64,000 nt of DNA from Patescibacteria group bacterium (lineage in GTDB: Bacteria; Patescibacteriota; UBA1384; CAJBMM01). The position numbers were made by a program, and so were the translations under genes. The notes beneath the pieces were generated by a model, which saw nothing but the letters and a program-made list of their open reading frames with translations, did no database searches and was not told the origin of the DNA. The stretch lies in assembly GCA_041660565.1 (NCBI GenBank), contig JBAZWC010000001.1:6155-70154 (forward strand), in the 5' to 3' direction. Shown here one piece after another: positions 3,320 through 62,975 of this stretch (positions are counted from its first letter, which is position 1; every line of letters starts with the position of its first letter).

Positions 3320-3337
3320 TGAGAAATGCCGCAATCT

Positions 3338-8954: not shown

Positions 8955-9051
8955 TCGAGCTGATTAGGGGAGGAAATGGATAATATCATTGCATCTTATC
9001 CTGTTTTGTGGTAAAACAATTATGGAAATCACATACCTCTGGGAGGTGCGC

Positions 9052-9396
9052 ATGGCTGATCACGGGTATCGCGCCACCGTTGGGTTGAAGGCGCGAACGA
9101 TGGCTGAAGCACAGAAGGTGGTCGCCCATCTGCGGGAAATGGACGGAATCGAGTTCGTTCTCGAGCCGTTCCAGATCCGCAGTGCCGCGGCGGCTGAGGA
9201 AGGCGCTGCTCAAGAGTCTCGGCCGCGAGTGCTAGCCCAGCAAGGTCTGGCAGCGGTTGCCGGCGGGGTGGCAAGCGGTGGCAATTGGTTTCGCGAGCAG
9301 TTGGACGAGGTCGCTCAGGAGGCTGAGGGGTGGCCACCGTGGCGCACAGCGGGCACTGATCGCTTCGCGCCGAGCAATGAGCCCGTGACGTTGTAG
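9052..9396 (+). CDS. hypothetical protein (high-GC cassette B, gene 1)
   Basis: ATG preceded by SD gggaggtg. GC is about 60-65%. No recognisable domain. Confidence 0.4.
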   Translation: MADHGYRATVGLKARTMAEAQKVVAHLREMDGIEFVLEPFQIRSAAAAEEGAAQESRPRVLAQQGLAAVAGGVASGGNWFREQLDEVAQEAEGWPPWRTAGTDRFAPSNEPVTL

Positions 9397-9431
9397 GTCG
9401 GTATGTCGTTTCTGGTGAGGGAAGGGAGGTG

Positions 9432-9803
9432 ATGAGCACAATGTCGTACAGTTTCGTTGTCGTGTGCGACGATGAAATCGATCAAGATCAGGCTTATGCC
9501 ATCACGCAAGAGGTTGATAGGATCCGAGGTGTTAGGTTCACCTACGCTCCCTATCGCAGTGGACCGGAGTCGGAGGCTCCGTCGCGACCGAAGACGTGGG
9601 GCGATGTCTTCCCGTCTGCACCGTTTTATCGAGCGGGATCGGCCGATCCGGTTGATATCCCGTTGGCAGATGGTGATGCGGACGACAAGCCGCCGCGGCC
9701 GGCGAAGGTGGGGGCTGCTCGGTTTGACTTCGCGGAGGTTGTGGAAGTCGAAGACCCTCCGCGGATGGAGAAGCAAGGGCATTACCCCGGCGAGGTCGGG
9801 TGA
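9432..9803 (+). CDS. hypothetical acidic protein (high-GC cassette B, gene 2)
   Basis: ATG preceded by SD gggagg. Acidic, Pro-rich sequence. No recognisable domain. Confidence 0.4.
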   Translation: MSTMSYSFVVVCDDEIDQDQAYAITQEVDRIRGVRFTYAPYRSGPESEAPSRPKTWGDVFPSAPFYRAGSADPVDIPLADGDADDKPPRPAKVGAARFDFAEVVEVEDPPRMEKQGHYPGEVG

Positions 9804-12335: not shown

Positions 12336-12412
12336 TGGTGGGCGTACATGGATTTGAACCATGGACCTCGTCATTATCAGTGACGCGCTCTAACCAACTG
12401 AGCTATACGCCC
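12336..12412 (-). tRNA. tRNA-Ile (anticodon GAT)
   Basis: The reverse complement GGGCGTATAGCTCAGTTGGTTAGAGCGCGTCACTGATAATGACGAGGTCCATGGTTCAAATCCATGTACGCCCACCA folds as a cloverleaf with GAU in the loop. Confidence 0.9.
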
Positions 12413-16595: not shown

Positions 16596-17808
16596 GATTT
16601 AAAGTTGTTTGATGTACAAATAACCGTGAGGTTAAAACGTTTTACTTAAACAATCAGTTTAATTTCGGGATGGAATTAAAGATGTGAGCAATATTGTTTT
16701 GCTTGTGTTTTTGAACGCTTCCCGATGGGAAGTTTTTTGTTTCACTAGCCAGTGATGAGTCTCGGTCTTGAAACCGGGTCCACAAATTGCACGGGGACTG
16801 ATGTCCTGGCGAGTAAGTTCTTTTACAACTGAAAGGTGCATTAACGTGTTAAGTAATTTCACGGTTAATGCATTAAATTATGTATAACTTCCTTATTGAT
16901 TATACATAATATGATTCTTCCGATAATACTTAAGCCGCAAGGCTGTAGCAATTCGAAACCCCGCGAGGTTTTGTTTGCGCGAGCAAATGAAAATGAGCAA
17001 CGAGGTGAGAGCCGAGTTGATCCAAAACCGACACGAGGTTTCCATAAAAAATAAAATTGTTAGGATGAAACTTACCAAAGCCTGGTAAGGATCAGTCATA
17101 ACGTGTCAAGTAACCAATAATGAAAACAGATGACTAGAAGCACTTGTGTTTCAAATCTGATGTTTAGTTAAAGGTTTTGTTAGATCCGTTAATTAGAAGC
17201 AGAGACTCGAGACTGTAGAGGATTTTTCCTCTTAGGTTTCTTGTTTCTGGTCTCTAGTTAGCAGTCATGTAAAAAGTGACGAAAGCGCATGTGGAGGATG
17301 CCTTGACTGAAGATGCTGATGAAGGACGCACGAGGCGGCGATATGCTCCGGGAAGGTGCCAACGAACCAATGATCCGGAGATTTCCGAATGGGGTAACCC
17401 ATCCCGTTTTACGGGATACTCTCCTTTGAATATATAGAAGGAGTAGGAGGCAGCTCGGGAACTGAAACATCTTAGTACCGAGACGAAAAAAAAGTAATTA
17501 ACGATTCCGTGAGTAGTGGCGAGCGAAAGCGGATCAGCCTAAACCATCCGGAGGACTTAGAGCAGAATTATTTCTGTTTTATGTCTTCTGGATGGGGTTG
17601 CAGGGTGCGAACAGACCGTAAGGTCGAGTAGTTTGAAAAAATCAATTTATAGCAGAAGGTGCCTGGAAAGGCCCACCATAGAGGGTGATAGTCCCGTTAT
17701 GCGAAATATTTTGGTCTACTTGGTTTGCAAACCTAAGTACCACAGGGCACGAGAAACCCGGTGGGAATCTGGGACGGTCACGTCCTAAGGCTAAATACAT
17801 CTTCAGAT

Positions 17809-17848
<40 letters not shown>

Positions 17849-19207
17849 GCCGCATAGGCGAGTGAAATAGTACCTGAAACCACAATGCGTACAAGATGTC
17901 GGAGGGCTATGCCCCGTAAGGGGAATGCCTGACGGCGTGCCTTTTGTAGAATGAGCCAACGAGTTAGCTGTGTATGGCGAGGTTAAACTTTAAATTAGTG
18001 AAGCCGTAGTGAAAGCGAGGCCTAAATGGCCGACTAGTCGTACACACTAGACCCGAAACCAGGTGATCTATCCATGGTCAGGGTGAAGCCCCAGTAAAAA
18101 GGGGTGGAGGCCCGCACTCGGCAACGTTGTAAAGTTGCGGGATGAACTGTGGATAGCGCAAATATTGCAATCGAACCTGGAAATAGCTGGTTCTCCTCGA
18201 AATATATATAGGTATAGCCTACATTTAAAATACACAGAGGTAGAGCACTGGTAGGGCTACTCCGCCGTGAGGTGGGGAAACCCTGATAAACTCCGAATTC
18301 TGATGTATGTTCATGTAGAGTCAGACGGTGGGGGCTAAGCTTCATCGTCGAGAGGGAAACAACCCAGACCATTAGCTAAGGTCCCAAATTAATCGCTAAG
18401 TGGGGAAGGCAGTGATCGTCCCAAAACAACCAGGAAGTTGGCTCAGAAGCAGCCATCTTTTAAAGAGTGCGTAATAGCTCACTGGTCTAGTTAAGGATGG
18501 TTGCACCGAAAATGTAACGGGGCTCAAGCGATTAACCGAAGCTATGGACTTCAACGCAAGTTGGAGTGGTAGAGGAGCGTTCGTAACTGCTGTGAAGCCA
18601 TACCGTAAGGAGTGGTGGAGTGTTACGAAGTGAGAATGTTGGCATGAGTAACGAATTAGGCAGGCGAGAAACCTGCCCACCGCAAGAGCAAGGTTTCCTG
18701 GGCCACGATAATCGTCCCAGGGTTAGGCGGTCCTAAGTCGAGGCGCAAAGGCGTAGACGATGGACAGCTGGTTGATATTCCAGCCCTTGTTAAATTTTGA
18801 TTGGCGTGACGCCTCATAGGGGCTTAAATGATCGCATGGTTGAAAGTTTAAGTGAGTACGAGGACAAGAAAAGCGTCCAATCGCTAAGGTTTAACAATCC
18901 GTACCGCAAACCGACGCAGGTGCTCGAGTCGAGTAGACTCAGGTGATCGGAAGAACCCTCGTTAAGGAACTCGGCAAAATAGCGTCCGTAAGTTCGCAAT
19001 AAGGACTGTCCCGCGAAACTCGCAAGAGTGTAGAGGGATTACAACAAAAGAGATCAAGCGACTGTTTAGCAAAAACTTAGCTCCCTGCCAAAGCGAAAGC
19101 TGATGTATAGGGGGTGATGCCTGCCCAATGCCCGAAGGTCAAGAGGAGATTTAAGATTATATCAGGAATCGAATTTAAGCCCGGGTGAATGGCGGCCGTA
19201 ACTATAA

Positions 19208-19913
19208 ACCAAATTGTAGTTATAAAATTCGGCCAAATGCTGGAAAATCTGTCCTGAAAAAGGACTAGTATCCCGAACTAAAACCGTATAATATTAAATT
19301 ATGTACGATTTTGAAAATGTTACGGGTGCAGACAATCAGCAGGAAAGACTTGTCGTGAGTATTTCATCCGAAATTGGCTCGTTTCTCTCCGGTTTTGCCA
19401 TGGGAGAAGCCAGTTTCATGATCGTTTGTCGTTCAAGAAATGACTATAAAAGAAAATGGAAAGTGTCTGCAGCGTTTAATGTTTCTCAACACGATCGAGA
19501 GCCTCTCGATTTGTTTCATGAAACATTGGGTTGCGGAACGATTAGAAAAGCAGGAAATGATGGTTGGTATTTCGAAGTGAATAAATTATCAGATATCTGT
19601 AAAATAATTATTCCATTTTTTCTTAGGTTTCCTTTAGTGGGAATTAAGCAGAAAGATTTTGAATTATTCAAAGCTGCTGCTCAAATCCTGTCAAAGAGTG
19701 AAATTGACGATCAAGATTTTTCTAAAGTACTTTCACTGCGTGAGCAGATGAATAACGGAGGAAAAAGAAAATACTCAAAAACAAGAATCCTCAGAGACTA
19801 TACGCCGAACTCCCGCTTAGCGGGATGATGATATAGTCCGATCTTCATGGCGACATGAAGTATCAATCAGAAATGATTGGTCTTTCAAGAAATTGAATGT
19901 AACATAAATGAAC
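19208..19913 (+). mobile_element. group I intron 1 in the 23S (inserted after ...CGTAACTATAA, E. coli position about 1917)
   Basis: The exon sequence is interrupted exactly between ACTATAA and CGGTCC. It contains an ORF. Confidence 0.7.
19301..19828 (+). CDS. LAGLIDADG homing endonuclease (encoded in intron 1)
   Basis: LAGLIDADG-type motif LSGFAMGEASF; about 175 aa, typical for single-motif homing endonucleases. Confidence 0.75.
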   Translation: MYDFENVTGADNQQERLVVSISSEIGSFLSGFAMGEASFMIVCRSRNDYKRKWKVSAAFNVSQHDREPLDLFHETLGCGTIRKAGNDGWYFEVNKLSDICKIIIPFFLRFPLVGIKQKDFELFKAAAQILSKSEIDDQDFSKVLSLREQMNNGGKRKYSKTRILRDYTPNSRLAG

Positions 19914-19944
19914 GGTCCTATGGTAGCGAAATTCCTTGTCGGGT

Positions 19945-20630
19945 GAGAGGAAACAAGCCCGACGCAAAAAAGTTGGCTTATAACGGTGAAGCCCTATTGT
20001 AATTATGGTATATGTTCGGTTAGAATGAATGTATAAATGCAAGGGTAATACCGTGGGAAGTCTTAGTGACCCCGTAACGACTGAGAGCGTAAGCTCGAGA
20101 ATCCACGCAAGTGGGTTAACACGCCAGCCTTTAAAGGATGAAGAAATTAAATTTGCTTCATATCTCTCTGGGTATGTTGATGGAGAAGGATGTTTTTCCG
20201 TATCCCTCAACCCTAGAAAGAAAATGAATAATACTTGGGAAGTCAGACCGAGTTTTTCGGTCAGTCAGAATGCTGAACGTTCAGCCTTTTTATTCAAAAT
20301 GAAAGAATATTTTTCGTGTGGTACTATCCGGCCTGATCGGTCTGATAATACCTTGAAATATGAAATTCGATCATTAGATAAATTAATTGAACGAATAATC
20401 CCGCATTTTGAAAATTTTCCATTACGTTCCGAGAAGCAAAAATCATTTCTAATATTCACGCATATTTGTCAGATGTTGAAATCAAAAAAGCACTTAACTT
20501 CAGACGGAATTTCTGAAATTATTGCTTTAGCCCCGACAATCAACAATGGCAAGCGAAGATATTATCCATTAAAGAAGATATAGTCTGCGCCACTAGTAAT
20601 AGTGGATTGAACAAACGTTCAAAGAACGCG
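19945..20630 (+). mobile_element. group I intron 2 in the 23S (inserted after CCTTGTCGGGT, E. coli position about 1931)
   Basis: The exon resumes with AAGTTCCGACCCGCACGAATGG at 20631. Confidence 0.7.
20029..20583 (+). CDS. LAGLIDADG homing endonuclease (encoded in intron 2); start uncertain
   Basis: Motif YLSGYVDGEGCF. Confidence 0.75.
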   Translation: MYKCKGNTVGSLSDPVTTESVSSRIHASGLTRQPLKDEEIKFASYLSGYVDGEGCFSVSLNPRKKMNNTWEVRPSFSVSQNAERSAFLFKMKEYFSCGTIRPDRSDNTLKYEIRSLDKLIERIIPHFENFPLRSEKQKSFLIFTHICQMLKSKKHLTSDGISEIIALAPTINNGKRRYYPLKKI

Positions 20631-21103
20631 AAGTTCCGACCCGCACGAATGGCATAACGGTCTTGATCACTGTCTCAACGAGGGATCCGGTGAAATTACA
20701 ATCTCGGTAAAGATGCCGAGTACCCGCATCAAGACGGAAAGACCCCGTGGAGCTTTACTACATCCTGGCATTGATATACGGATATCTTCACGTAGCATAA
20801 GTGGGAGCCTTTGATAACATTCTCGCGGGAGTGTTTGAGGCGACAGTGAAATACCACCTCTAGCTATTTGTGTATCTAACCCCTCACCCTGAATCGGGTG
20901 GGAGAGACAGTGTTTGGTGGGTAGTTTAACTGGGGCGGTTTCCTCCCAAATGGTAACGGAGGAGTACAAAGGTCGGCTAGCTCCGGATGGAAATCGGAGT
21001 GATAGCGCAAAAGCATATGCCGGCTTAACTGTGAGACCTACAAGTCGAACAGATGGGAAACCAGGTTTTAGTGAACTGCTGCACTTGAGTGATTTAGGCA
21101 GCA

Positions 21104-21143
<40 letters not shown>

Positions 21144-21168
21144 GCATCCAAGAGATCACTTCGACGAT

Positions 21169-21206
<38 letters not shown>

Positions 21207-21242
21207 AGGTGAAGTCGCTTCCAAGGGTTTGGCTGTTCGCCA

Positions 21243-21294
<52 letters not shown>

Positions 21295-21643
21295 AATCTG
21301 ATGTGGGCGTGGAATTTTGAGTGGGGTTGCGCGTAGTACGAGAGGACCCGCGCGAACGAACCTCTGGTGTGCCAGTTGTTCTACCAAGGGCAGTGCTGGG
21401 TAGCTATGTTCGGTTATGGATAACCGCTGAAAGCATATAAGCGGGAAGCCGGCCACAAGATAAGAATTCATAGATCCCCTGTAGACCACAGGGTTGATAG
21501 ACGCTAGGTCGAAGCTCTGTAAGGAGTTAAGCCAAGGCGCACTAACGGATCATTTCATTTTTTATAACAACCCTCCTTCGCATAAAGCTACGGAGGGCAA
21601 GCGCTTGACACGTTATGACTGGTCTTTTAAAAAAAGTCCATTG

Positions 21644-29274: not shown

Positions 29275-29286
29275 CATCACGACCTG

Positions 29287-31573: not shown

Positions 31574-31647
31574 GCCTCGTTAGCTCAGATGGCAGAGCGG
31601 CCTGGTTAGCACCAGGACGGCCGGCGGTTCGAGTCCGCCCCGGGGCA
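31574..31647 (+). tRNA. tRNA-like gene with an aberrant anticodon arm (possible pseudo-tRNA / integration target)
   Basis: Canonical D-arm (TAGCTCAGATGGCAGAGC), T-arm (GGCGGTTCGAGTCCGCC) and a 6/7-bp acceptor. The anticodon region CCTGG-TTAGCA-CCAGG has only a 6-nt loop, so no anticodon can be assigned. No encoded CCA. Confidence 0.45.
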
Positions 31648-31695
31648 TGTATTCTACGGCAAGACGTCCACAACGCGCATCAAGGAGGACAGCAA

Positions 31696-31914
31696 GTGAG
31701 GCGAAAGCCAGTGGACCAACTGATGGTCCGAGATGTCTTGTCACCAGGCGAGGCATTGAAGATCATGCGTGATGCCGCCGAAGCGGCTAAGGGCAATGTC
31801 CTGCAACGTCAGGACGACGTCACGAAATCCGGACAGGCCCATGTAATGCGGGCCACTGCCGGAACGACTGTTACGCAGTACCGCAATGAGGAGGTCAAGC
31901 GCTGTGACAAGTGA
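31696..31914 (+). CDS. hypothetical small protein (high-GC cassette E, gene 1)
   Basis: GTG start after SD aaggagg; 72 aa. Confidence 0.35.
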   Translation: MRRKPVDQLMVRDVLSPGEALKIMRDAAEAAKGNVLQRQDDVTKSGQAHVMRATAGTTVTQYRNEEVKRCDK

Positions 31915-32032
31915 CTTGGAGGCAATTCGTGAAGCGGCTGGACTGCCAATTCCGATTGCAGATGCCACCAGTGGTTTCATCACCAACTCGGACACGACAC
32001 AAGGAAGTGGAAGGGCTGGTGGCAATGCCTAA
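31904..32032 (+). CDS. hypothetical 42-aa protein (cassette E, gene 2; frame chosen over the 134-aa track ORF)
   Basis: The frame-2 ORF VTSDLEAIREAAGLPIPIADATSG... is protein-like. The overlapping 31911-32315 frame gives an R/S/P-rich N-terminus typical of off-frame high-GC translation. Confidence 0.25.
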   Translation: MTSDLEAIREAAGLPIPIADATSGFITNSDTTQGSGRAGGNA

Positions 32033-32315
32033 GCAACGGACACACTCCACTGCAGCGGGGCGGCGCGTCACTGATGAAGATGCGCGTGATGGCGATATAA
32101 TGCAACTGGCCAAGGCTGTGGTTGATGGGGCACGAATAACTGAGTTCCAAGCTGCCAATGCATTGTGCCATCGTCTTCGGGTCGCCATTGATAGCGAGTC
32201 GCCCAAAAGCAGATCTCTCGTGACCCTTCGTCTGGCAATACGGACTCTCGAGGCACAATTCTCGACCATGGTTGGGTCTGTCACCTTGTCCAGTGCCGTA
32301 GTCCGGGCGCGGTAA
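32025..32315 (+). CDS. hypothetical protein (cassette E, gene 3)
   Basis: ATG at 32025 overlaps the gene 2 stop (ATGCCTAA); 96 aa. Confidence 0.3.
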   Translation: MPKQRTHSTAAGRRVTDEDARDGDIMQLAKAVVDGARITEFQAANALCHRLRVAIDSESPKSRSLVTLRLAIRTLEAQFSTMVGSVTLSSAVVRAR

Positions 32316-32553
32316 CAGGCGCAATACTCGCTCCATTGGGAGCAGACCGATAGTCCGGGCGGGAGAACATCCCCGCTCGGGCTTCTTTTTATCCATTAAT
32401 CGTAGGGGCGGTCTCATACCTGCCCCTCGTAGCCTTCTTGACCTTCCGAAGCTTTAGCGCAGGAGGTGGCGTAGTGGGGTGTCCGCCCGTTTAATTATAT
32501 AGATTCCGGGTCAAGCCCGGAATGACAAGTGAATAATGTGCTAAAGTAATCTT

Positions 32554-35612: not shown

Positions 35613-35704
35613 GGGATCAAGTCAAATACTACGACCTGTGTAGGGGCGATTCTCGTTGGCCGTCGGACATCCGATGCGTCAGATAGGACATCGCCCATTT
35701 ATGG

Positions 35705-35733
35705 TTGACTACATGTACTGTAAAGCGTATATT
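35705..35733 (+). promoter_or_regulatory. sigma70-like promoter of cassette D gene 1
   Basis: TTGACT, a 17-nt spacer, then TATATT. The same architecture and leader recur at 36581-36609. Confidence 0.5.
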
Positions 35734-35788
35734 TGTGTTGCCTGCAAAACTGCGCAGAGTACCGATACAGAACGGTGGTGAGACAAAC

Positions 35789-36481
35789 GTGGTAGATTTG
35801 GACGGATTTCCGGCCAGCATCGCCAATGGTGAGATTCGGGTAGAGGTGTACGATAACCTGAAGTACCCTGAGTTCGGTCGGTTGTACACCGAGCGCGTTG
35901 TTACTATCCCCTCTGACGATCTGCACGCATGGTCTTTGCTGGCTGATGGTGCCCAACTGTTGGTGACTTACCGTCATCTGTATCCCACTGGTGGAGGCGT
36001 GGCCAGCACTGAGGTTGGAGAGTACCGGGTTCCCGAGGGCACGAAGGAGGTATTCGTGTCGTACGCCTTTGGGATGGATGACTTGATACCGTTCCATGGG
36101 TCTGGCGATGACAGAGCATCTGAGCTACATGCTTCGAAGCAGGGCGTGTTCCCTTTCCGGCAAGGTTTGGGGCGTGCCCACAACTTGTACCACCAGCCTC
36201 TTGGGCTCGACTGGGGCCAACTGTGTAAGGCAGCAGATGTGTTGGCTATTCATGGTCGGTTAGTCGGGCGAAAGGGCATCCCTGCTGACTTGTCCGAAGG
36301 TAAAGTGCTTAAGAGCGGATGGGCAGCCGGCGAAGGTGGTGCCGAGGTGTATCGTGGTTACCACGATGTCGTAAGCGGTCGCCTGGTCTATCCCAACAAC
36401 CTACCAGGCCGATCCCCGTATCTGGTCCTCAAGTTTGACCAGCCGCACATCATCTGGTGCCCGGAGATCAACTGGAAGTAG
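35789..36481 (+). CDS. hypothetical protein, high-GC cassette D paralog 1
   Basis: GTG after SD ggtggtgag. About 230 aa and paralogous to the next gene (LLVTYRHLYPTGGGVA / LLVTYDRPVGVGAA; PLGLDWGQL / PLYLGWKEF). Confidence 0.45.
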   Translation: MVDLDGFPASIANGEIRVEVYDNLKYPEFGRLYTERVVTIPSDDLHAWSLLADGAQLLVTYRHLYPTGGGVASTEVGEYRVPEGTKEVFVSYAFGMDDLIPFHGSGDDRASELHASKQGVFPFRQGLGRAHNLYHQPLGLDWGQLCKAADVLAIHGRLVGRKGIPADLSEGKVLKSGWAAGEGGAEVYRGYHDVVSGRLVYPNNLPGRSPYLVLKFDQPHIIWCPEINWK

Positions 36482-36580
36482 CGCCGAGTCTTGTCGTGTG
36501 GGCTGTGCCAACTGGCGCAGCCCACGTTTCTTTCGTAGACCACGCTTTAGCGTAGGAGGTAGCTAAGGAGGGCGCCCGCC

Positions 36581-36609
36581 CGCTTGAGATTGACTAGATG
36601 TACCGAAAA
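36581..36609 (+). promoter_or_regulatory. sigma70-like promoter of cassette D gene 2
   Basis: TTGACT, a 17-nt spacer, then TATTTT, followed by a leader gtgttgcctgcaaaactgcgcagagtacc identical to that of gene 1. Confidence 0.5.
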
Positions 36610-36662
36610 GCGTATTTTGGTGTTGCCTGCAAAACTGCGCAGAGTACCTAAACAGAGAGAAG

Positions 36663-37328
36663 GTGAAAATCGTGGCAGTTTCACCTAAAAGACCAACCGA
36701 GGTTGGTCGGATCAGAGTGTTGTGGAAGGACAACCTGGAGTGGCCAAACATGGATGATCTTCTTGGGGCTAACGTGGTCTCTCTGCCTACCAATGAAGAC
36801 CGTTGGGCCATGCTTGGGGGCGAGGACAGGCAATTGTTGGTCACTTACGACCGCCCTGTGGGTGTTGGAGCGGCGAAAGTGGACATGAAGACCAGCTTCA
36901 TCGTTGGGGACGATGGTGGCATCCCGTTCTGTTTCTCGGCCACAGGGCAGGCAGATCAGCTGTTCGAGACGCAGCTAAGCGTTTTCGAAGTGCCGCGGCT
37001 AATGAGCCAGATTACGGAAGAGATGGATTTGGTGAGTAACCGGCGCCATGACGTCTATTACGCGCCACTCTATCTCGGGTGGAAGGAATTCCTTCGTGTA
37101 GTCGCTGCCCTGAACATCCTAGGAACCTCTTGTTTGCCAGACGCCAATCCAACCAATGTTCCTCGAGGTGAAGTTGTGCTTCGGAAGTGGGTGGCAGGCG
37201 ATAACACATTTGTGGTCAAGGGGAATGGAATCATGATTGCATCTGGGACCCTTCACCATCCTCAAGCTGGCCCATTGTCTCTTGGTGATCCTCACCTCGT
37301 TCAGGCGATCACATTCCCGACCCTCTAG
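36663..37328 (+). CDS. hypothetical protein, high-GC cassette D paralog 2
   Basis: GTG start (an alternative GTG lies at 36672); about 220 aa; paralog of 35789-36481. Confidence 0.45.
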   Translation: MKIVAVSPKRPTEVGRIRVLWKDNLEWPNMDDLLGANVVSLPTNEDRWAMLGGEDRQLLVTYDRPVGVGAAKVDMKTSFIVGDDGGIPFCFSATGQADQLFETQLSVFEVPRLMSQITEEMDLVSNRRHDVYYAPLYLGWKEFLRVVAALNILGTSCLPDANPTNVPRGEVVLRKWVAGDNTFVVKGNGIMIASGTLHHPQAGPLSLGDPHLVQAITFPTL

Positions 37329-37355
37329 CCCCAACAACAATATCGCCAACACTCA

Positions 37356-41060: not shown

Positions 41061-41262
41061 GGAAAGCACGAAGCACGAAATACGAAGCACGAAAAAAATT
41101 TCAAATCACAATTTTTAATTTTAAATATAAAACCGTAGCCCAGACTTCGTGACCTTCCGTAGCTCGAAGAGCGAAGGAGGTTAGTCTGTTTTCCAGAGAA
41201 AAACACGCTGAAGCGTGGACTACGTTTATAATTAATGATTTGGAACTCAGAGTTAATATATT

Positions 41263-43037: not shown

Positions 43038-43191
43038 TGTCATTTCGACCCGAGGAGTGTGTCAACACGACTACGATGGAGAAATCTAAGAAAAAATCTC
43101 ATCCGCAATTTTAAATTGTAAATTGAAAATTTCAAATTCTTTTGTAAGATCTCTCCACCCTCTCGACAACGCTCGAGGAGTCGAGATGACA
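43038..43191. repeat. MITE-like repeat, family 1, short copy
   Basis: TGTCATTTCGAC ... GTCGAGATGACAA termini with an aatttcaaat core. Confidence 0.6.
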
Positions 43192-43235
43192 AGTCGTGGA
43201 GTATAACAACATTCAAAATTAAAATTGAGGCAATA

Positions 43236-46820: not shown

Positions 46821-46950
46821 CATGTCATTCCCGTGAAGACGGGAATCCAGTCTATAAAAGAATTTTCTATCTCTGCTCCGAATCAAGTTCGGGGTGGTTG
46901 GCGCCAGATCCCCAAATAGTCCGCCAGCTGGCAGAGTCGGGGATGACAAA

Positions 46951-49139: not shown

Positions 49140-49310
49140 TTCTTTCTTGTTCGAACGCAGCGAGAACTCTGTTGGGGGTGCATGACAGTTCTCGTCGCAG
49201 TGCTCCTCGAACAAGAACAGACTGGATTCTGGACCAGTCTCGACGAGGTTGAGCAGAGGTGGATCAAGCCCAGAATGGCAAAGAATAAGCCCGGGGACGT
49301 CGTGTGACAT
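49140..49310. repeat. palindromic repeat, family 4 (TTCTTGTTCGAAcg...cGAACAAGAA) plus a family 2-like tail
   Basis: TTCTTGTTCGAACGCAGCGAGAACTC...AGTTCTCGTCG...CTCGAACAAGAA. Homologs occur at 58420-58500 and in part at 57395-57430 and 58565-58600. Confidence 0.55.
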
Positions 49311-49319
49311 CCTCGGGCA

Positions 49320-49844
49320 TTAGGCATCCTCCTGTTGGCTGGCACGGAGCAGTACCTCTTCGTCAGGGCGATCAGATGGCCGCAGCAGCCTGGCGGTTTT
49401 GGCAGCCTCGTCCACGGCCAGTTTCCTCGCCAACTCAGCGAGCCTTCTTTCCTCCGCCTGCGCTTTTCGGATGACCTCGGCTTGTTCTACAACGGTAACC
49501 TCGTGGGCGATCTCCTGCTGTTGACGAGTGCCCCACTGTACGGCTGCCTGGCTGGGAGTAACAATCAGGTACTTCCAGAACGCTTTGGCAACCGCCCCGA
49601 TCGAGGGTGAATGTATCCAGCAACATATCAGGAGCAATGTCCACTCCCAAAGTGATCTGTGACTGTGATGCGTGACAAGATCGAATATCGTGACAAATCC
49701 GATGGCCATCCCGAATGCCCATATACCTACCGCGAAACCGCAAGTGCTCTCACCCACCCAATTTGGGACATACATAACGGCACGCCCAAATCGGCGAAGC
49801 TTTCGGCCAAGGTATCGGCCGATTGCTTTCAGCCAAATGTGCAT
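49320..49844 (-). CDS. hypothetical membrane protein (high-GC cassette F)
   Basis: ATG at 49842-49844 after SD aggagg and a TGGACA-17-TAAAAT promoter. Two TM helices then a charged helical tail. Confidence 0.4.
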   Translation of the reverse strand: MHIWLKAIGRYLGRKLRRFGRAVMYVPNWVGESTCGFAVGIWAFGMAIGFVTIFDLVTHHSHRSLWEWTLLLICCWIHSPSIGAVAKAFWKYLIVTPSQAAVQWGTRQQQEIAHEVTVVEQAEVIRKAQAEERRLAELARKLAVDEAAKTARLLRPSDRPDEEVLLRASQQEDA

Positions 49845-51083: not shown

Positions 51084-51338
51084 TGTCATTTCGACTCCTC
51101 GAGCATTGTCTCGAGGGTGGAGAAATCTCAAAGAAAGAAAATTTTTAATTTTTAATTTTTAATTTCAAATGAAAGGTAGCCAATTTTTAAATGACTAAAT
51201 AAGGAACCTTTTAAAAATTTAAACATTCGGCACTTATTCATTTAAAATTTAGCCTTTAAAATTTAAAATTTGGATAGGATTTTTTCTTAGATTTCTCCAA
51301 CATAGTCGAGCTGACGCTCTTCTAGGGTCGAAATGACA
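51084..51338. repeat. MITE-like repeat, family 1, full-length copy (about 255 bp)
   Basis: Left TIR TGTCATTTCGACTCCTCGAG...CTCGAGGGTGGAGAAATCT and right ...AGATTTCTCC...GGGTCGAAATGACA, with an AT-rich core shared with 3420-3550. Confidence 0.65.
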
Positions 51339-51365
51339 TATTTTGAAGTTGATTAGAGGAAATTT

Positions 51366-55128: not shown

Positions 55129-55146
55129 TAATGAAAACATCGCGAC

Positions 55147-55401
55147 TGTCATTTCGACTCGGGGAGAGCGTCGGCTCGACCACGCTTCAAGAAATCTAAG
55201 AAAGAATCTCATCCATAATTATAAATTTTAAAGGCTAAATTTTTAATGAATAAGTACCGAATGATTAAATTTTAAATGGTTCCTTATTTAGTCATTTAAA
55301 ATTGGCTTCCTTTCATTTGAAATTGAAAATTGAAAATTTAAAATTCTCATATTGTAGATTTGCACACGCCCCAATTGGAACATCGAGGAGTCGAGATGAC
55401 A
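55147..55401. repeat. MITE-like repeat, family 1, full-length copy in the opposite orientation to 51084-51338
   Basis: TGTCATTTCGAC...GTCGAGATGACAA, with a core that is the reverse complement of 51140-51270. Confidence 0.65.
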
Positions 55402-55421: not shown

Positions 55422-56369
55422 ATGACCGATCCAAATCAATCCATTTTATTTGTCATTATTTTAGTGATATCTATTTCCGCGCTTTTCATTACTCGCAAAT
55501 TAATGAAATCATCATTTCCATATGTATTTGTGGGCATTTTAGGGTTAATATTTGGATTGCTCGTTGGTGCGCTGTTGGCCATTCCGGTTTCACGTCTACC
55601 GGGGGATTATGGCAAGTGGTTGCCAATGATAGTAAATATTTTTGCGGCCGTAGCCGTTCTGGATTTGTTCATGGCACAAGGCAAGCGATTCAATCTAGTA
55701 TATCAATCATGGATTAACGGGAAAAACCCACTCAACTTTAACAACGTTAATTTATTACCAGAGCTGTTGTTAGACACCTCGGCACTAATTGACGGGCGGA
55801 TTTTAGAGGTGGCGGAAACTGGATTTATGATATCCCCTTTTGCAGTGCCGGTTTTTGTGATTGATGAATTGCAACAATTGGCCGATAGTAAAGACGATAT
55901 CAAACGCGAAAAAGGCCGCCGTGGTCTAGAGTTGTTAGAAGCATTGCGTCAGAGCCCAAAAATTGATTTGCGTATAATCGACAAAGATATCGATCAGAAA
56001 ATCGGGGTTGATCATAAATTGGTGGTATTAGCCAAAGAGCGCGGTAGCCGGGTTTTGACCACAGACAGCGCGCTTAATCGATCTGCTACCATTCAGGGTG
56101 TGGTGGTGTTGAATCTGAACGATCTAGCTGCATCGTTAAAACCGGTCGTTTATCCGGGTGAAACAATGAATATCGAAATTGTGCAAAAAGGCAAAGAGCG
56201 CGGGCAAGGCGTTGGGTACCTCGCAGACGGGACAATGGTGGTGGTGGAGGGTGCGGATAAAGAAATTAGCAAAACAGTGAACTGCAACGTGGTGCGTGTT
56301 TTTCAAACATCCTCCGGCCGAATGCTCTTTGCCGAAATTACCAAGACGCCTGTCGTCCGTAGCTCGTAA
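55422..56369 (+). CDS. membrane-anchored PIN/TRAM domain protein (YacL-like)
   Basis: Two N-terminal TMs, a PIN-like acidic core (LLLDTSALIDGR...VFVIDEL), and a C-terminal TRAM-like beta region. Sits downstream of radA as in Firmicutes. Confidence 0.6.
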   Translation: MTDPNQSILFVIILVISISALFITRKLMKSSFPYVFVGILGLIFGLLVGALLAIPVSRLPGDYGKWLPMIVNIFAAVAVLDLFMAQGKRFNLVYQSWINGKNPLNFNNVNLLPELLLDTSALIDGRILEVAETGFMISPFAVPVFVIDELQQLADSKDDIKREKGRRGLELLEALRQSPKIDLRIIDKDIDQKIGVDHKLVVLAKERGSRVLTTDSALNRSATIQGVVVLNLNDLAASLKPVVYPGETMNIEIVQKGKERGQGVGYLADGTMVVVEGADKEISKTVNCNVVRVFQTSSGRMLFAEITKTPVVRSS

Positions 56370-56460: not shown

Positions 56461-57357
56461 ATGAACGATAAAATTCTTAATCACTATCTAGAATTTGGTC
56501 TTTTCACAAACCCAGGATTATACAAAAACATACTCCAGCACGATCTACCAGACAACATCCAAGAAATCGGAAGCTTAGTAAGAAAAAATATTATTCATCG
56601 CACCACTCTTGAGGCTGGGAATGTGGGCACAAATTATGACTTGAAATTTGGCGATATGAAACAAGTTCCATGGTATCGTCAGCCAGAAGATGATAACTTA
56701 CCCACCACCCCAGCGATGTTAGCTGAGCTATACCGTCGTGACGCTCGCGGCCTAACCCCAAACCGCAAAGTTGAGGACAAATTAATACTCACTTGTAGAT
56801 TTGTCTCAATTCTCACGGCATCTATTCTCAAATCTAAAGGAATACCGGCTCGCGTTCGGTCTGGTAATGCGCCATACTTTGATATGGGGAGTTTGGGAGA
56901 TGTGAGTACGGATCACTGGATTAATCAGTATTGGAAAAAAGACGATAACCGTTGGGTAACAATAGATGTTGACGGAAGTCTGAGTCTAAAAGACAAATTT
57001 AATCCATATGATATGCCAAACGACAAATTTGATTTTCCAGCAGTTGCTTGGCTAAATATTCGTTCTGGAAAAGTCGACCCGGACCATTTTTATAACGCCT
57101 CGTCTGATCGTGGCGCCATTGTGGTTGTATGGTCACTTTTCTATGATTTTCATTCTTTAATGAATGACGAAGTTATTTATTCCCATGTCCCAGAGTTTGG
57201 TACATACAAAAAATTTAAGAAACTTTCCCCAAAAGAGTTAGAAAAAATTGACATGTTGGCCAAATTAATGCTCAAACCTGACGAAAACTTTGATAAGTTA
57301 CTAGAGATATGGAATACAGACCGTGACCTCAGGCTATTAAAAGGTGGACTTCTATAG
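56461..57357 (+). CDS. transglutaminase-like cysteine protease superfamily protein
   Basis: A Cys...His...Asp arrangement (LTCRFVSIL...STDHWINQYW...WVTIDVD). Confidence 0.6.
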   Translation: MNDKILNHYLEFGLFTNPGLYKNILQHDLPDNIQEIGSLVRKNIIHRTTLEAGNVGTNYDLKFGDMKQVPWYRQPEDDNLPTTPAMLAELYRRDARGLTPNRKVEDKLILTCRFVSILTASILKSKGIPARVRSGNAPYFDMGSLGDVSTDHWINQYWKKDDNRWVTIDVDGSLSLKDKFNPYDMPNDKFDFPAVAWLNIRSGKVDPDHFYNASSDRGAIVVVWSLFYDFHSLMNDEVIYSHVPEFGTYKKFKKLSPKELEKIDMLAKLMLKPDENFDKLLEIWNTDRDLRLLKGGLL

Positions 57358-57507
57358 ACTGGATTCCCGCCTTCGCGGGAATGACAACTCGAAGATAGTT
57401 CTCGGTTATGCCTCGAACAAGAAAACCGTAGTCCAAGCTTTCGTGACCTCCGTAGCTCGGAGAGCGAAGGGGGTAGTTTGTTTTCCTCATAACACACTAA
57501 AGCGTGG
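57357..57507. repeat. composite repeat (family 2 unit, family 4 tail and family 3 unit); left flank of cassette G
   Basis: ctggattcccgccttcgcgggaatgacaac...agttctcggt...cgaacaagaaaaccg. Then ccgtagtccaagctttcgtgacctccgtagctcggagagcgaaggggg, which is homologous to 41130-41225. Confidence 0.55.
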
Positions 57508-57523
57508 TCTACGAACGCCAAAC

Positions 57524-57552
57524 TTGACTAAATGTGTAATATATGCTAATAT
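57524..57552 (+). promoter_or_regulatory. sigma70-like promoter of cassette G
   Basis: TTGACTaaATGT, a 17-nt spacer, then TAATAT. The -35 context TTGACTAnATGT is shared with the cassette D promoters. Confidence 0.5.
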
Positions 57553-57626
57553 AGTTGCTAGAACCTGAACATTGGCCCAAACCGTTGGGCCATCATCGCC
57601 GGCGGGCTTACGCAAGGGAGAATTCG

Positions 57627-58241
57627 ATGGCTGACTCTGAGCTGATGCTCGATGTCGGGCAGGCGAATGAGCTCAAGTTGGCTTTCCGCAGATGCGGATG
57701 GACCAACGAAGAGATCAAGAAGCTTAGTGAGGGCGACACTCTGGTCGGGGTGCGGCAGGTGATTCGTGGCGAGGCCACGATTCAGGCAGTCGAAGCGTCG
57801 AAGTTGCTTGAAGACGTCGGCACCTACGGCGTCGATGTGGTCACGGAATTCGACGCCGAGACGGAGTTGGTCGAGGGAAAGCACGGCATCAGTTGGGCCA
57901 GCGAAGAGTTCAAGAAATTCATCGCTGGCAAGATCGAGACCAATGTTCCGGCGGCGCGGCTCCGCGTCAGCAAACTGCTTAGGCAGTCGGTGGATGGCCC
58001 GATCATCGCCGAACTGGGTGGTGAGGCGACGGTAGAGACGTTCTTGGCATGGCTGTCGCAGCTGTTGGGGAAGCTTCCCCACGGCCGCTATCTTTTCTAT
58101 GTCAAGGACGCCCAAGGAAGGCTTTGGGTGGTTCACTGCTTATGGTACTCCAGCTACAGCGGCTGGTGCCTGAACGTCGACTCGGTTGCGAAACTGTTCC
58201 AGTGGACTGTCGGCAACCAGTTCCTCTCTCGCGATTCTTGA
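57627..58241 (+). CDS. hypothetical protein (high-GC cassette G)
   Basis: ATG after SD aaggga. About 205 aa and roughly 60% GC. No recognisable domain. Confidence 0.45.
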   Translation: MADSELMLDVGQANELKLAFRRCGWTNEEIKKLSEGDTLVGVRQVIRGEATIQAVEASKLLEDVGTYGVDVVTEFDAETELVEGKHGISWASEEFKKFIAGKIETNVPAARLRVSKLLRQSVDGPIIAELGGEATVETFLAWLSQLLGKLPHGRYLFYVKDAQGRLWVVHCLWYSSYSGWCLNVDSVAKLFQWTVGNQFLSRDS

Positions 58242-58288
58242 ACCTCTGACCCTTGGGTCTTAGTGCCACTCTGGTGCTCTGACCCTTT

Positions 58289-58324
58289 GGCCCTCTGACA
58301 CTTTGTCGGAGGGCCATTGTTTGT
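58289..58324 (+). terminator. rho-independent terminator closing cassette G
   Basis: GGCCCTCtgacactttgtcgGAGGGCC followed by attgtttgt. Confidence 0.5.
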
Positions 58325-58419
58325 ATATAATACAACAGGAAACTGTGGGATGGTGGCTACGGCTTTCGTCCACGTTTCAGATTGTTGTTTACTCCAGAAT
58401 TGCTTTATATATCACCTTC

Positions 58420-58640
58420 GAGGTGCAAGATTGATTTTCTTGTTCGAACGGAGTGAGAACTCAATCAGATTGGGTAGTTCTCGTCGTAACCCTCCTCGAA
58501 CAAGAATATTGGAAGTCTTCTATATACTGGATTCCGGATCTAGTCCGGAATGACAACAAAAACGGGTAGTTCTCAGTCGCGACTTCGAACAAGAAAACCG
58601 GTGGGCGGACATATGAGTCCGCCCCTACGGTGGTCGTGAT
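58420..58640. repeat. composite repeat (family 4 palindrome, family 2 unit, family 4 tail and a GGGCGGAC palindrome); right flank of cassette G
   Basis: TTCTTGTTCGAACGGAGTGAGAACTC...CTCGAACAAGAA; ctggattccggatctagtccggaatgacaac...agttctcagtcgcgacttcgaacaagaaaaccg; ggtgggcggacatatgagtccgcccctacgg. Confidence 0.55.
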
Positions 58641-58652
58641 GCGTGCCTCGAT

Positions 58653-61529
58653 TTAGAACGTTAGGTCGGCGGAGGAGACGGTTCCGGTGCCAAGCTGCGA
58701 AGTTACTTTGTAATGATAAGTGGCGGTGGCAGTTAGGCCGGTAATAGTAATGGAATGTGACTTTACGTTCCCTTCGCCCTCATTTTGTGTTGAACCGTAG
58801 GTGTTGGTTAAACCATAAACCACATTTCCGGACGCGGCAACACCCGAGCTCCACGTTATCGTAACCGATAGTTTATCCACAGACCGTGTGGCGATTACGT
58901 TGGATATCGCCAATGTCAAATTGTTGGCGGTGGTAAAGCTGGCAGTAGCGGTACTCTCTTGGCCTTGTAGGTCTCTATCTACCACTTTGAATGTATGTTT
59001 TCCATCTATTAGATCAGTGGTGTCGTAAGACACTTTCCATGGAGCATTAGGTTCGGCCACTTTAACATCGTCAATATAGAAGGTCATTAACGATACCCCG
59101 AAAGGTGATGCCCCGGTGGATTGTAGATTGATAGTGCCCGAGACAGTTGCTCCATCGATAGGTGAGACTACGGCTACTGTTAATTTATCGTTCGTGGTTG
59201 GGTCATATTCATCGGTTGGTGGGGATTCGGTATTTAGCCCATTACTTTTAGCCCATGCCTGAACCGGATTTTCCCAGACCGGATCCTTTGGCCTTTCAGA
59301 ATGAATACGGGTGAATATTTTGTTTAATACTAAATCAGTCGGAGTTGCGTCGGTAGCTAGTTTGGATTGATCTAAGCGATAAACTTTGACAGTTTGATGA
59401 ATGTCATCGGCATCCTTGGGCTGTTGGCTATCTGTACAGATATCACGAATGATGTCGTCAGCTGGAGTAGCGTCGGTTGGTTTTTTATTATATGTGTATT
59501 TAACAATGGAGCAGTCTTTTACGTTGTCGGGGCGTACAAAGTCTTCACCCGGCATATCTTTGAGTACTTTTTGCATAAAATCACGCCAAACCGGAGCGGC
59601 TGCCATCGCTCCCGCGCCGGAGTGTGTCATTTCTTTGTTATCGTTATTTCCTACCCACACCGCGGTGACGATTTGGGGGGTGTAACCAATGGTCCACGCG
59701 TCACGATAGCTAGAGGTGGTTCCGGTTTTAACTGCCACTTGTCTGTCGGTAAAGTTAAGCGCAGAATTGCCTCCAAAGGTGGCGGTGCGGGCCCCATTAT
59801 CTGACAAAATCGAGCTTATTTCGTACGCAATTCCCGGGTCAATTACGGTTTTGGGCTGATCCTTCCACTCTTGAATCACATTGCCGCTTGAATCTTCAAC
59901 TTTTTGAATACTTGATGTTGGATGCAAGTTACCGCCGGTAGCAAATACTCCGTAAGCCCCCACCATTTCAGTCATTTTTACTTCGGCCGATCCGAGTACC
60001 ATAGATAAGCCATAATTGTCCGGTTCGGTTAAAGTGGTTATACCTAAATCTTGAGCATTGCTTATTGCATCGCTGGTTCCGACAATTGCTTGCGCCTTAA
60101 CTGCTGAAATGTTTAAAGAGTTGCCTAGTGCGTATCGGGTCGTTAGTGCGCCACGACCACCACCAGAATAGTTATGAGGCCAAATGACATCGGGTTTAGA
60201 TTGGTCGTAGCTACCTTCAACATCAAAAATTGTGCTTCCCGGGCTCCACCCTTCCTTAAATAAAGAAGCATAAACAATCGGCTTGAAACTCGAGCCTGGC
60301 TGGCGCAAAGAAGTAGTGATATTTACAGATCCGAAAGTCTTATTGTTGTAATCAACCGAGCCCACCATGGCTAAAATTTGACCGGTTTTAGCGTCAGTAG
60401 AAAGTAAGGCGATGTTGCTGGCGTTGGTTGACTTAAAAATACTAGTTGATTTGTCAGTAATAATTTGTTCTGCTAATTTTTGCTTTTCTAAATCAAGCGT
60501 AGTTGTTACCTTGTACCCACCGGTCGCCAGACGCTTTTCGCCGTCAGCCCCACCGCCCAGTAAATCAACCAATTGCTCCTTTATATAAAAGATAAAATGG
60601 GTGGCAACGCTGTTTGATTTAATTTGGGTTAAGCCCTCGCTGATACTAATTAATTTTGCTTTATCTCTTAGATCATTTGATATATACCCTTGGTCAGCCA
60701 TTTTGTTTAAAACATTGTTACGGCGAATTTTAAGCGAGTCAACATGGTTGCCATATGGATTATAGTATGATGGTGCTTGAGGAATCGCAGCCAACGTGGC
60801 CACTTGTGCGTACAGAATTGCCTTTTGACCATCGTCGCTGGCCTTTTCCGGATCTAAATCTTGAATATTTTTGCCGTAATAAGTATTTGCGGCGGCTTGA
60901 ATACCGTAATTGTTATTGCCATAAGGAATCTGGTTTAGATAATAGGCAAGTATTTGATCTTTGTCATAAATACGTTCAAATTGATACGCCACCACTGCTT
61001 CTCTAATTTTTCGCGCGATCGTTTTTTTGGTGCCAATACCTTCAATTAAGTTTCTGGCCAATTGTTGGGTAATGGTAGAAGCGCCTTGTGATTTTGAGCC
61101 GTGCGTAATATCAACATAAATTGCTCTGGCAATACCGCGATAGTCGATGGCGCCATGTTTATAAAAATCTTTGTCTTCAACGGCCACCGTGGCATTTTTG
61201 GCAGCATCTGGGATATCTTTACCATCTACTACGGTACGTTTTTCCTCGTCGTAAACGTCTTTAATTAATACGCCGTTTCGATCAAATATTTTAGTAGAGC
61301 TAACCGGTTTAATTTGAGCAAGTTCGCCCGGTTTAGGAATGTTAAACGAAAAATAAACAATCATGCCCACAATAATCAACACAAAAACAGCCAATACTTT
61401 TAGCGCGATGACCAGTACTTGTTTAAACGTAAGGCGCTTAACACCACGCTTTATTTCGGCGGGCGAGAGATTTTTTAATCCCAATGGATTAAAAAACTTT
61501 TTAACAAAAATTATTAGTCGATTTTTCAT
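58653..61529 (-). CDS. mrcA: class A penicillin-binding protein (transglycosylase plus transpeptidase) with C-terminal Ig/FN3-like extension
   Basis: N-terminal TM, GT51 motif TITQQLARN, transpeptidase motifs SSFKP (SxxK) and KTGT, and about 250 aa of C-terminal beta-rich repeats. Confidence 0.85.
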   Translation of the reverse strand: MKNRLIIFVKKFFNPLGLKNLSPAEIKRGVKRLTFKQVLVIALKVLAVFVLIIVGMIVYFSFNIPKPGELAQIKPVSSTKIFDRNGVLIKDVYDEEKRTVVDGKDIPDAAKNATVAVEDKDFYKHGAIDYRGIARAIYVDITHGSKSQGASTITQQLARNLIEGIGTKKTIARKIREAVVAYQFERIYDKDQILAYYLNQIPYGNNNYGIQAAANTYYGKNIQDLDPEKASDDGQKAILYAQVATLAAIPQAPSYYNPYGNHVDSLKIRRNNVLNKMADQGYISNDLRDKAKLISISEGLTQIKSNSVATHFIFYIKEQLVDLLGGGADGEKRLATGGYKVTTTLDLEKQKLAEQIITDKSTSIFKSTNASNIALLSTDAKTGQILAMVGSVDYNNKTFGSVNITTSLRQPGSSFKPIVYASLFKEGWSPGSTIFDVEGSYDQSKPDVIWPHNYSGGGRGALTTRYALGNSLNISAVKAQAIVGTSDAISNAQDLGITTLTEPDNYGLSMVLGSAEVKMTEMVGAYGVFATGGNLHPTSSIQKVEDSSGNVIQEWKDQPKTVIDPGIAYEISSILSDNGARTATFGGNSALNFTDRQVAVKTGTTSSYRDAWTIGYTPQIVTAVWVGNNDNKEMTHSGAGAMAAAPVWRDFMQKVLKDMPGEDFVRPDNVKDCSIVKYTYNKKPTDATPADDIIRDICTDSQQPKDADDIHQTVKVYRLDQSKLATDATPTDLVLNKIFTRIHSERPKDPVWENPVQAWAKSNGLNTESPPTDEYDPTTNDKLTVAVVSPIDGATVSGTINLQSTGASPFGVSLMTFYIDDVKVAEPNAPWKVSYDTTDLIDGKHTFKVVDRDLQGQESTATASFTTANNLTLAISNVIATRSVDKLSVTITWSSGVAASGNVVYGLTNTYGSTQNEGEGNVKSHSITITGLTATATYHYKVTSQLGTGTVSSADLTF

Positions 61530-62835: not shown

Positions 62836-62850
62836 AACCCAACGCCCCCT

Positions 62851-62975
62851 TGTCATTTCGACTCGGGGAGAGTGTCAACTCGACCACGGTGGAGAAATCT
62901 TGAGAAAGAATCCATTCCAGTTGTTCTTAGAGATTTCTCCAACCGTTCGTGGAAGCTCACGGGGTCGAAATGACT
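62851..62975. repeat. MITE-like repeat, family 1, short copy
   Basis: TGTCATTTCGACTCGGGGAG...GGAGAAATCT...AGATTTCTCC...GGGTCGAAATGAC. The right TIR contains the argS ATG. Confidence 0.6.

Follow-up and report, generated by a model that had tools for sequence, protein, structure and literature searches.

The subject of this analysis is cassette G, a GC-rich single-gene cassette that lies between two composite repeats in a 64,000-nucleotide stretch of DNA (the window) from a metagenome-assembled genome (MAG) of the Patescibacteria, also known as the Candidate Phyla Radiation (CPR). We found that its surroundings are probably a cluster of mosaic repeats resembling the repetitive extragenic palindromes (REP) and bacterial interspersed mosaic elements (BIME) of E. 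coli and the neisserial intergenic mosaic elements (NIME), and that this cluster surrounds captured cargo in a permissive gap between convergent genes. Short intergenic palindromic families would have expanded in this genome, and the two composites would be two local mosaic instances of them.

An initial annotation had described direct repeats of about 75 bp bracketing a high-GC gene. Both copies are indeed present, the left one at 57359-57428 (2 bases off the 57357-57430 proposed there) and the right one at 58527-58600. Since both are preceded by the same 10-nt extension, CTTCTATAnA, the composites span 57349-57428 and 58517-58600. They stand in direct orientation, 1.1 kb apart, on either side of gene G (57627-58241, plus strand), whose high GC content also holds (56% vs 41-45% around it, 11-13 points above the genome). 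The left composite (plus strand) is made of a 5' block (57349-57367), a hairpin of the type of the neisserial repeat dRS3 (ATTCCCGCCTTCGCGGGAAT, 57363-57382), the sequence GGAATGACAAC (57378-57388) and a single module, TAGTTCTC-N9-TCGAACAAGAAAACCG (57396-57428). On the same strand, the right composite shows a 5' block (58517-58535), the hairpin ATTCCGGATCTAGTCCGGAAT (58531-58551), GGAATGACAAC (58547-58557) and a single module, TAGTTCTC-N10-TCGAACAAGAAAACCG (58567-58600). The final two codons and the stop of a transglutaminase-domain gene (CTT CTA TAG, 57349-57357) fall inside the 5' block of the left composite; this block also occurs at 46822 (minus strand), remote from any transglutaminase gene, and the transglutaminase homologues share the C-terminal residues (..GGLL*) but with other codons.

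The local alignment of the two composites gave a score of 41, compared with a mean of 8.5, a standard deviation of 1.5 and a maximum of 15 for 1000 shuffles, so their similarity is far above chance. This similarity is concentrated in four shared blocks, CTTCTATA(G/T)ACTGGATTCC (19/20 identical), GGAATGACAAC (11/11), TAGTTCTC (8/8) and TCGAACAAGAAAACCG (16/16). Between them the sequences diverge: the hairpin cores differ (CCCGCCTTCGCGGG on the left vs CCGGATCTAGTCCGG on the right), as do the stems (CCCGC..GCGGG vs CCGGA..TCCGG), and the spacers (TCGAAGA vs AAAAACGGG, and GGTTATGCC vs AGTCGCGACT) have different lengths and cannot be aligned, with three indels in all and an overall identity of about 80%. 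Such block-wise conservation with unalignable spacers and coordinated stem changes is not the even decay expected after a duplication. As also described in the initial annotation, each copy is followed by a different palindrome. On the left, it is a unit at 57422-57474 (plus strand; its "family 3"), which can be folded and is a copy of 41129-41181, with 77% identity over 53 nt. On the right, it is the GGGCGGAC/GTCCGCCC hairpin at 58603-58624 (minus strand), which is followed by GGUUUUCUUGUU, the reverse complement of the last block of the composite. Folding of the minus strand of 58515-58655 gave this hairpin, and together with GGUUUUCUUGUU it appears to form an intrinsic-terminator-like structure, putative in function, right after the stop codon of the gene for the penicillin-binding protein PBP1A.

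The hairpin of the composites belongs to a family that has at least nine copies in the 64 kb (8167-, 29284-, 29323+, 32489+, 38853+, 44365+, 46822-, 57349+ and 58517+), besides a long variant at 49226-49290. Its building block can be written TATAGA/CTGGATTCC-stem-loop-stem-GGAATGACA. The copies are found in both orientations, mostly in ordinary intergenic gaps between core genes, including those of the dcw cell-division cluster, and they may point either way relative to the genes. Their 9-bp stem is kept by compensatory changes at two of its nine pairs, one of which occurs as AU, CG, GC or UA and the other as GC or CG. Two hairpins stand together at 29284/29323 only, and the other clusters combine one hairpin with other units.

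The second unit of the composites, the module, is about 30 nt long (AGTTCTC-N7-13-TCGAACAAGAA) and has six copies in the window, present singly or as inverted doublets. Four of them surround gene G (57396+, 58434 inverted, 58476+ and 58567+), and two lie beside a second GC-rich cassette (49140 inverted and 49187+). The doublet next to cassette G (TTTTCTTGTTCGAA-N6-GAGAACT ... AGTTCTC-N13-TCGAACAAGAA, 58434-58506, plus strand; fold z = -3.07) matches the one at 49140-49221 arm for arm at 87-93%, and each folds as a long hairpin. Both families thus meet again in a second cluster (49140-49290, plus strand), where the doublet is followed by the long hairpin variant at 49226-49290 and adjoins the gene at 49320-49844 (minus strand). 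This gene is a GC-rich orphan cassette in the ATE_C|MurB gap, which measures 967 bp here vs 220 bp in the relative L129. Smaller motifs link other cassette borders: the 19-nt motif CTAAAGCGTGGTCTACGAA (57497-57515, plus strand) recurs, as its exact reverse complement, at 36532-36550, where another GC-rich cassette has its border, 58612-58629 is similar to the reverse complement of 32401-32418, and 32451-32489 to 36544-36582. Because the constituent units recur in other combinations, the repeat of 75-80 nt is a mosaic. Altogether, the window contains 22 xAATGACA units, eight dRS3-like sites and six modules. Not one of these units was present in the loci of close relatives that were compared, about 60 kb on four contigs (L127-L130, which form two overlapping pairs), and this points to a lineage-specific expansion. 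A search of 57300-58700 against Rfam gave no match, either at the gathering threshold or at E = 1.

We then asked whether the flanking copies are closer to each other than to the rest of their families, as an integration scar would have it. Essentially, they are not, which is the outcome that the initial annotation had named as refuting its proposal. When the 40-nt hairpin units are compared, the left copy shares 90% identity with 46822 (minus strand) vs 80% with the right copy, and the best match of the right copy is 29284 (minus strand), with 82% vs 80% to the left one. Moreover, the stem-loop of the right copy is identical to that of 29284, and that of the left copy is one compensatory pair away from 46822. 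The two single modules flanking G share 68% identity, within the range found among all six (58-80%); neither is nearer to its counterpart than to the remaining four. The initial annotation had proposed that the repeats are a target-site or attachment-site (att) duplication, in which integration of cassette G would have duplicated one ancestral site of 75-80 nt whose copies later diverged. The direct orientation, the common order of the blocks and the placement exactly at both sides of GC-rich cargo are in keeping with this proposal, and a related locus, L001, which carries a complete diversity-generating retroelement (DGR: target gene, template repeat, Avd and reverse transcriptase), is itself bracketed by 67-nt direct repeats (3648-3714/6573-6639, 93% identical) that may be a true mobility footprint of this DGR family. 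At cassette G, however, the two copies agree at no more than about 80% of positions and are separated by three indels, their spacers are saturated while their blocks are perfect, and their stems differ by coordinated changes and match other members of dispersed families (29284 and 46822). The cargo still has a GC content of 56%, so a duplication would be too young for saturated neutral decay. Target duplications made by transposases are far shorter than 75-80 nt. No integrase, transposase, reverse transcriptase or Avd was detected among the about 50 open reading frames (ORFs) of the window scanned with Pfam, as the initial annotation had noted for the first two, and the corresponding empty site of relatives has no repeat sequence. 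We therefore consider an att-type duplication very unlikely; what stands of the integration footprint is the inserted cargo and the lack of a linked recombinase, and not the repeats as its scar.

Growth of a local tandem array, by which unequal crossing-over or slippage would have copied a hairpin + module unit with the cargo present there by chance, could explain why the composites are so close together and why the cluster at 58434-58624 looks like an array. We judge it highly improbable, the stems and spacers of the two composites being as different as those of distant family members and no intermediate copy being present.

In favor of the mosaic reading, the comparison of gene order confirms that the cargo is foreign to this site. 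The next relatives of the window's PBP1A are 54-63% identical, followed by Berkelbacteria at 40-46%. The housekeeping genes of the window include an unlinked 16S rRNA gene, a 23S rRNA gene with introns, a 5S rRNA gene, the dcw cluster and further genes such as recO, alr, fpg, tig and clpP. The left anchor of the interval is a YacL-like PIN/TRAM core gene (55422-56369, plus strand), 69% identical to an L129 gene lying 42 bp from the 3' end of the PBP1A gene, and the right anchor is the PBP1A core gene (58653-61529, minus strand). Relatives share the order MurB-FtsQ-RecJ-RadA-PIN/TRAM, convergent with PBP1A, then a tRNA-synt_1b synthetase gene. Between the anchors, we found 42 bp in L129/L130 (PIN/TRAM 69% identical), 315 bp in the contig with P0246, a single ORF of 172 amino acids in the contig with P0247, seven unrelated genes in L127/L128, and 2.28 kb in the window, occupied by cassette G and by the accessory transglutaminase-domain gene (56461-57357, plus strand). 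Since the interval is reduced to 42 bp in some relatives and holds unrelated cargo in others, it is a variable hot spot for accessory DNA. The homologues of the transglutaminase-domain gene are 70-74% identical and stand in unrelated contexts; this gene is widely shared among genomes but non-syntenic, which makes an empty-site comparison based on it uninformative, and the PBP1A anchor was used instead. The initial annotation had suggested searching for an empty site that joins the flanks through one repeat copy, and the 42-bp gap of L129/L130 is an empty site devoid of repeat sequence, a comparison that is weak given that even the nearest relatives share just 60-69% protein identity.

The cargo itself derives from a DGR. 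Gene G encodes a protein of 204 amino acids that is homologous to a DGR variable protein, with a variable-repeat-equivalent region at about 58115-58236, and its family is widespread in Patescibacteria (190 matches). The closest informative relative, P0002, is 45% identical over the full length and adjoins bAvd and an RVT_1 reverse transcriptase in locus L001. The 3' 122 nt of the P0002 gene are repeated 475 nt downstream with 22 mismatches, and 22/22 of these fall at adenines of the downstream copy. With all the mismatches of the repeat at template adenines, the P0002 locus bears the signature of a DGR. The window and L001 are homologous over the ribosome-binding site, the gene with its 3' region, and a leader that is non-coding but conserved (GGCTACGGCTT..CACGTTTCA, about 58335-58400, plus strand) and corresponds to the spacer between the variable and template repeats in L001 and L142; there the homology stops. 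Beyond about 58400, L001 and L142 keep a shared spacer and the template repeat, whereas the window goes into the module doublet at 58434. No template repeat was found in the window. Thus, cassette G is truncated, its homology stopping at about 58400, before the template repeat, where the repeat cluster begins. What is left of the retroelement is a promoter-like site, the gene for the variable protein with its 3' region, and the first part of the spacer, whereas the parts needed for diversification (template repeat, Avd, reverse transcriptase) are missing. The promoter-like site, at 57524-57552 (TTGACT-17-TAATAT with TG, plus strand), is a consensus match only; a terminator-like hairpin at 58288-58316 and a second promoter-like site at 58303-58331 follow on the same strand.

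Cassette G is therefore a retroelement in truncated form; at most, it could be a remote target. The homology of gene G to P0002 and the conserved 3' region and spacer leader recall DGRs with remote or orphan variable-protein genes. Complete DGRs differ from it, as the window has no template repeat, Avd or reverse transcriptase and the spacer ends at about 58400. Four further homologues of gene G stand alone without a reverse transcriptase, one of them with a decayed template-like copy, and in 5/6 contexts examined, this window included, no reverse transcriptase was called beside the variable-protein gene. The protein of gene G has no match in Pfam, PHROG or NCBIfam. Its AlphaFold model is confident (pLDDT 91.6) and has no significant Foldseek match in the Protein Data Bank (PDB) or BFVD, nor does the protein have a sequence-profile match in the PDB. 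The C-type lectin fold usual for DGR variable proteins was not detected, in view of this lack of a Foldseek match. The protein has a strongly conserved N-terminal motif, MLDVGQANELKLAFRR, and may represent a type of scaffold for DGR variable regions that has not been described before.

The units found around cassette G are of a kind known elsewhere. In Neisseria, dRS3 elements are 20-bp inverted repeats, ATTCCC-N8-GGGAAT, which together with RS units of 50-150 bp build the NIMEs (PMC1797815). The left hairpin of the window with its flanks, GGATTCCCGCCTTCGCGGGAATGAC, differs at 1/25 bases from GGATTCCCGCCTGCGCGGGAATGAC, a dRS3 copy of N. gonorrhoeae. The consensus is matched exactly at two window sites (57363-57382 and 46822-46860, minus strand), and six further sites have the variant ATTCCGG-N7-9-CCGGAAT. 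The likeness to dRS3 and NIMEs therefore includes the hairpin consensus on the left, the mixing with other short units in intergenic mosaics and, as for the neisserial "minimal mobile elements", the position of the units at the borders of variable, horizontally acquired genes between conserved anchors. It ends with the host, which belongs to the Patescibacteria and not to the beta-proteobacteria, with most copies being of the variant type, and with clusters that have one hairpin each instead of long dRS3-RS-dRS3 arrays.

The window repeats also resemble the REPs, BIMEs and REPINs (REP doublets) of E. coli, being short imperfect intergenic palindromes in both orientations with compensatory stem changes. 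Like REPINs, the modules form inverted doublets that make a long hairpin (58434-58506 and 49140-49221) beside single copies (57396-57428 and 58567-58600), and like BIMEs they enter mosaic combinations with other motifs. In contrast to REPs, the 5' GTAG is not conserved, being found only before the copy at 44365 (the other copies have ATAG or CTGG as 5' flank), and a module taken singly makes a poor palindrome. Whereas REPs and REPINs are mobilized by RAYT (REP-associated tyrosine transposase), no RAYT gene was seen in the window. Integron cassettes share with the window cassettes a single-gene cargo, imperfect palindromes at the borders and the absence of an internal mobility gene, but the cassettes here have promoter-like sites of their own and are spread over separate intergenic gaps. 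Integron attC sites were rejected, with no intI among the window ORFs, no array, and no RYYYAAC/GTTRRRY core sites on reading the sequence. Two further candidates were discarded: a dif/Xer site, the architecture being wrong, and transposon terminal inverted repeats spanning 57396-58461, for which there was no matching target duplication and the pairing of the arms was ambiguous.

The same elements occur in other organisms. The dRS3-type element was found in records of Legionella, Azospirillum, Photobacterium, Cupriavidus and sphingomonads, often with many sites per record, and the module doublet in a Saccharimonadia MAG and several gammaproteobacterial MAGs. A metagenome scan for the doublet retrieved a sole organism, unrelated and of about 58% GC, where a dRS3-type hairpin lies near the doublet. 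Scanning a genome collection for the module (AGTTCTC-N6-14-TCGAACAAGAA), a loose pattern of 18 specified bases and a variable gap, gave at least about 120 matches, which are mostly chance apart from a handful of real palindromic relatives. The composite had 0 matches in the metagenome collection, of which the source contig is not part. The composite and doublet patterns had 0 matches in viral contigs, and a plasmid search with the doublet gave no match.

Several observations weigh against the mosaic reading. Within the 64 kb, the order hairpin, 7-9 nt, module, AAAACCG is present at two sites only, those flanking G, which are direct, 1.1 kb apart and bracket the cargo; this uniqueness, like the repeat counts, refers to the 64-kb window only. 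A random scatter of units would rarely give such an order, which implies a local process such as array growth, duplication or recombination. Furthermore, 6/6 modules adjoin two GC-rich cassettes, suggesting that the module family may travel with cassettes or target them, and the Pfam scan of the window ORFs identified no mobilizing enzyme.

Because the order of the units is unique to these two sites, recombination between repeats stays a possible route by which cassettes are gained or lost. A cassette carrying one mosaic copy would have entered, or could leave, through a resident copy, and the two flanks would then be hybrid products. Such an exchange between dRS3/NIME arrays was proposed for Neisseria, where filamentous prophages enter dRS3 by means of their own recombinase (PMC1797815). 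In the window, the cargo is enclosed by copies in direct orientation that have exact blocks of 16-19 nt in common, relatives differ in what they carry at this hot spot, and the modules are found only beside cassettes. Yet no stretch of unbroken identity is longer than 16 nt, which is little for RecA-dependent exchange, the scanned window ORFs include no recombinase, the other cassettes of the window are not bracketed by direct repeats, and the right end of cassette G is a truncation inside a retroelement instead of a defined element end. We hold this capture by recombination to be possible, although rather unlikely. A bolder version, which we regard as doubtful, is that the dRS3-like mosaics are the recombination sites of a cassette-capture system, in which an unlinked dRS3-specific recombinase (IS110/Piv-like or similar) inserts, trims and exchanges GC-rich single-gene cassettes, those with retroelement variable-protein genes among them, at intergenic hairpins. 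If so, the direct repeats of cassette G would be the product of one capture event by this enzyme, and an ultra-small genome would possess a NIME- or integron-like system having its recognition hairpin in common with Proteobacteria.

Finally, we considered that the composite could be a selected cis-acting element (a transcript end, an insulator or a small RNA) that the cassette requires on either side. The combination of exact blocks and unconstrained spacers would fit such an element, as would the stable fold of 58515-58640 (z = -3.4), the compensatory pairs of the hairpin family, and the last block if it provides the U-tract of the PBP1A terminator. Nevertheless, this appears extremely unlikely: the left composite folds no better than shuffles (z = -0.8), Rfam had no match even at E = 1, no minus-strand gene on the left needs a terminator, and the orientation of the units with respect to genes is not fixed.

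Returning to the mosaic of dispersed palindromic repeats, the building principle would be the one shared by the BIMEs of E. coli, the NIME arrays of Neisseria and the intergenic mosaics of the window. Hairpins, modules and small GC palindromes would fill the intergenic DNA at the 3' ends of genes and at the borders of GC-rich single-gene cassettes. These units could be spread in trans by an unlinked enzyme, or through recombination or gene conversion. Once in place, they may act as hairpins at transcript ends, the last block of the right copy perhaps serving as the U-tract of the PBP1A terminator, and as portable sites of homology or recombination at which cassettes would be gained, trimmed or lost.

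Other cassettes and repeats were observed in the window. A GC-rich orphan cassette at 8989-9803 lies between clpP and the 16S rRNA gene. A GC-rich island at 31574-32490 (56-57% GC) begins with a tRNA-like sequence whose anticodon loop is abnormal (ARAGORN "tRNA-???", Rfam tRNA 36.5 bits), ends at the hairpin unit 32489, and encloses two small orphan ORFs (31696-31914 and 31911-32315). At 35613-37340, two paralogous GC-rich orphan genes stand in tandem (35705-36481 and 36663-37328), each after a duplicated 90-nt promoter and 5' leader (35692-35781/36577-36666, 82% identical), and neither gave a family in Pfam, PHROGs or NCBIfam. A 58-nt direct repeat (12231-12288/12320-12377, 90% identical, 89 nt apart) consists of the 3' part of the tRNA-Ile gene (12336-12412, minus strand) and 16 nt of flank; more so than the composites, this duplication has the appearance of a genuine att-type remnant from an element that was integrated or excised. 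A second set of larger, AT-rich repeats, resembling miniature inverted-repeat transposable elements (MITE) with GTCGAAATGACA-type hairpin ends, is found at 3337-3556, 8200-8333, 43038-43212, 51084-51343, 55146-55361 and 62850-62975; for example, 148 nt are shared with 91% identity between 3409-3556 and 55214-55361, inverted. These MITE-like repeats illustrate the heavy load of repeats in the intergenic DNA of this genome. The 23S rRNA gene (17271-21565) is 4.3 kb long with two intron ORFs that encode LAGLIDADG endonucleases (19301-19828 and 20029-20583), and 5.7 kb with tRNA and protein genes separate it from the 16S gene.

Taken together, the repeats around cassette G are dRS3/REP-like mosaic repeats in a CPR genome, of a kind already known from Neisseria and E. 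coli. A reduced CPR genome has thus been colonized by repeat families that are absent from the examined loci (about 60 kb) of its close relatives, and the near base-for-base likeness to dRS3 across phyla raises the question of a shared spreading enzyme or selective force. DGR variable-protein genes persist in CPR bacteria as stand-alone truncated loci. Since the repeats mark the borders of GC-rich orphan cassettes within a conserved gene order, this genome offers a compact test case for the mosaic-promoted gene capture that has been proposed, and never proven, for Neisseria.

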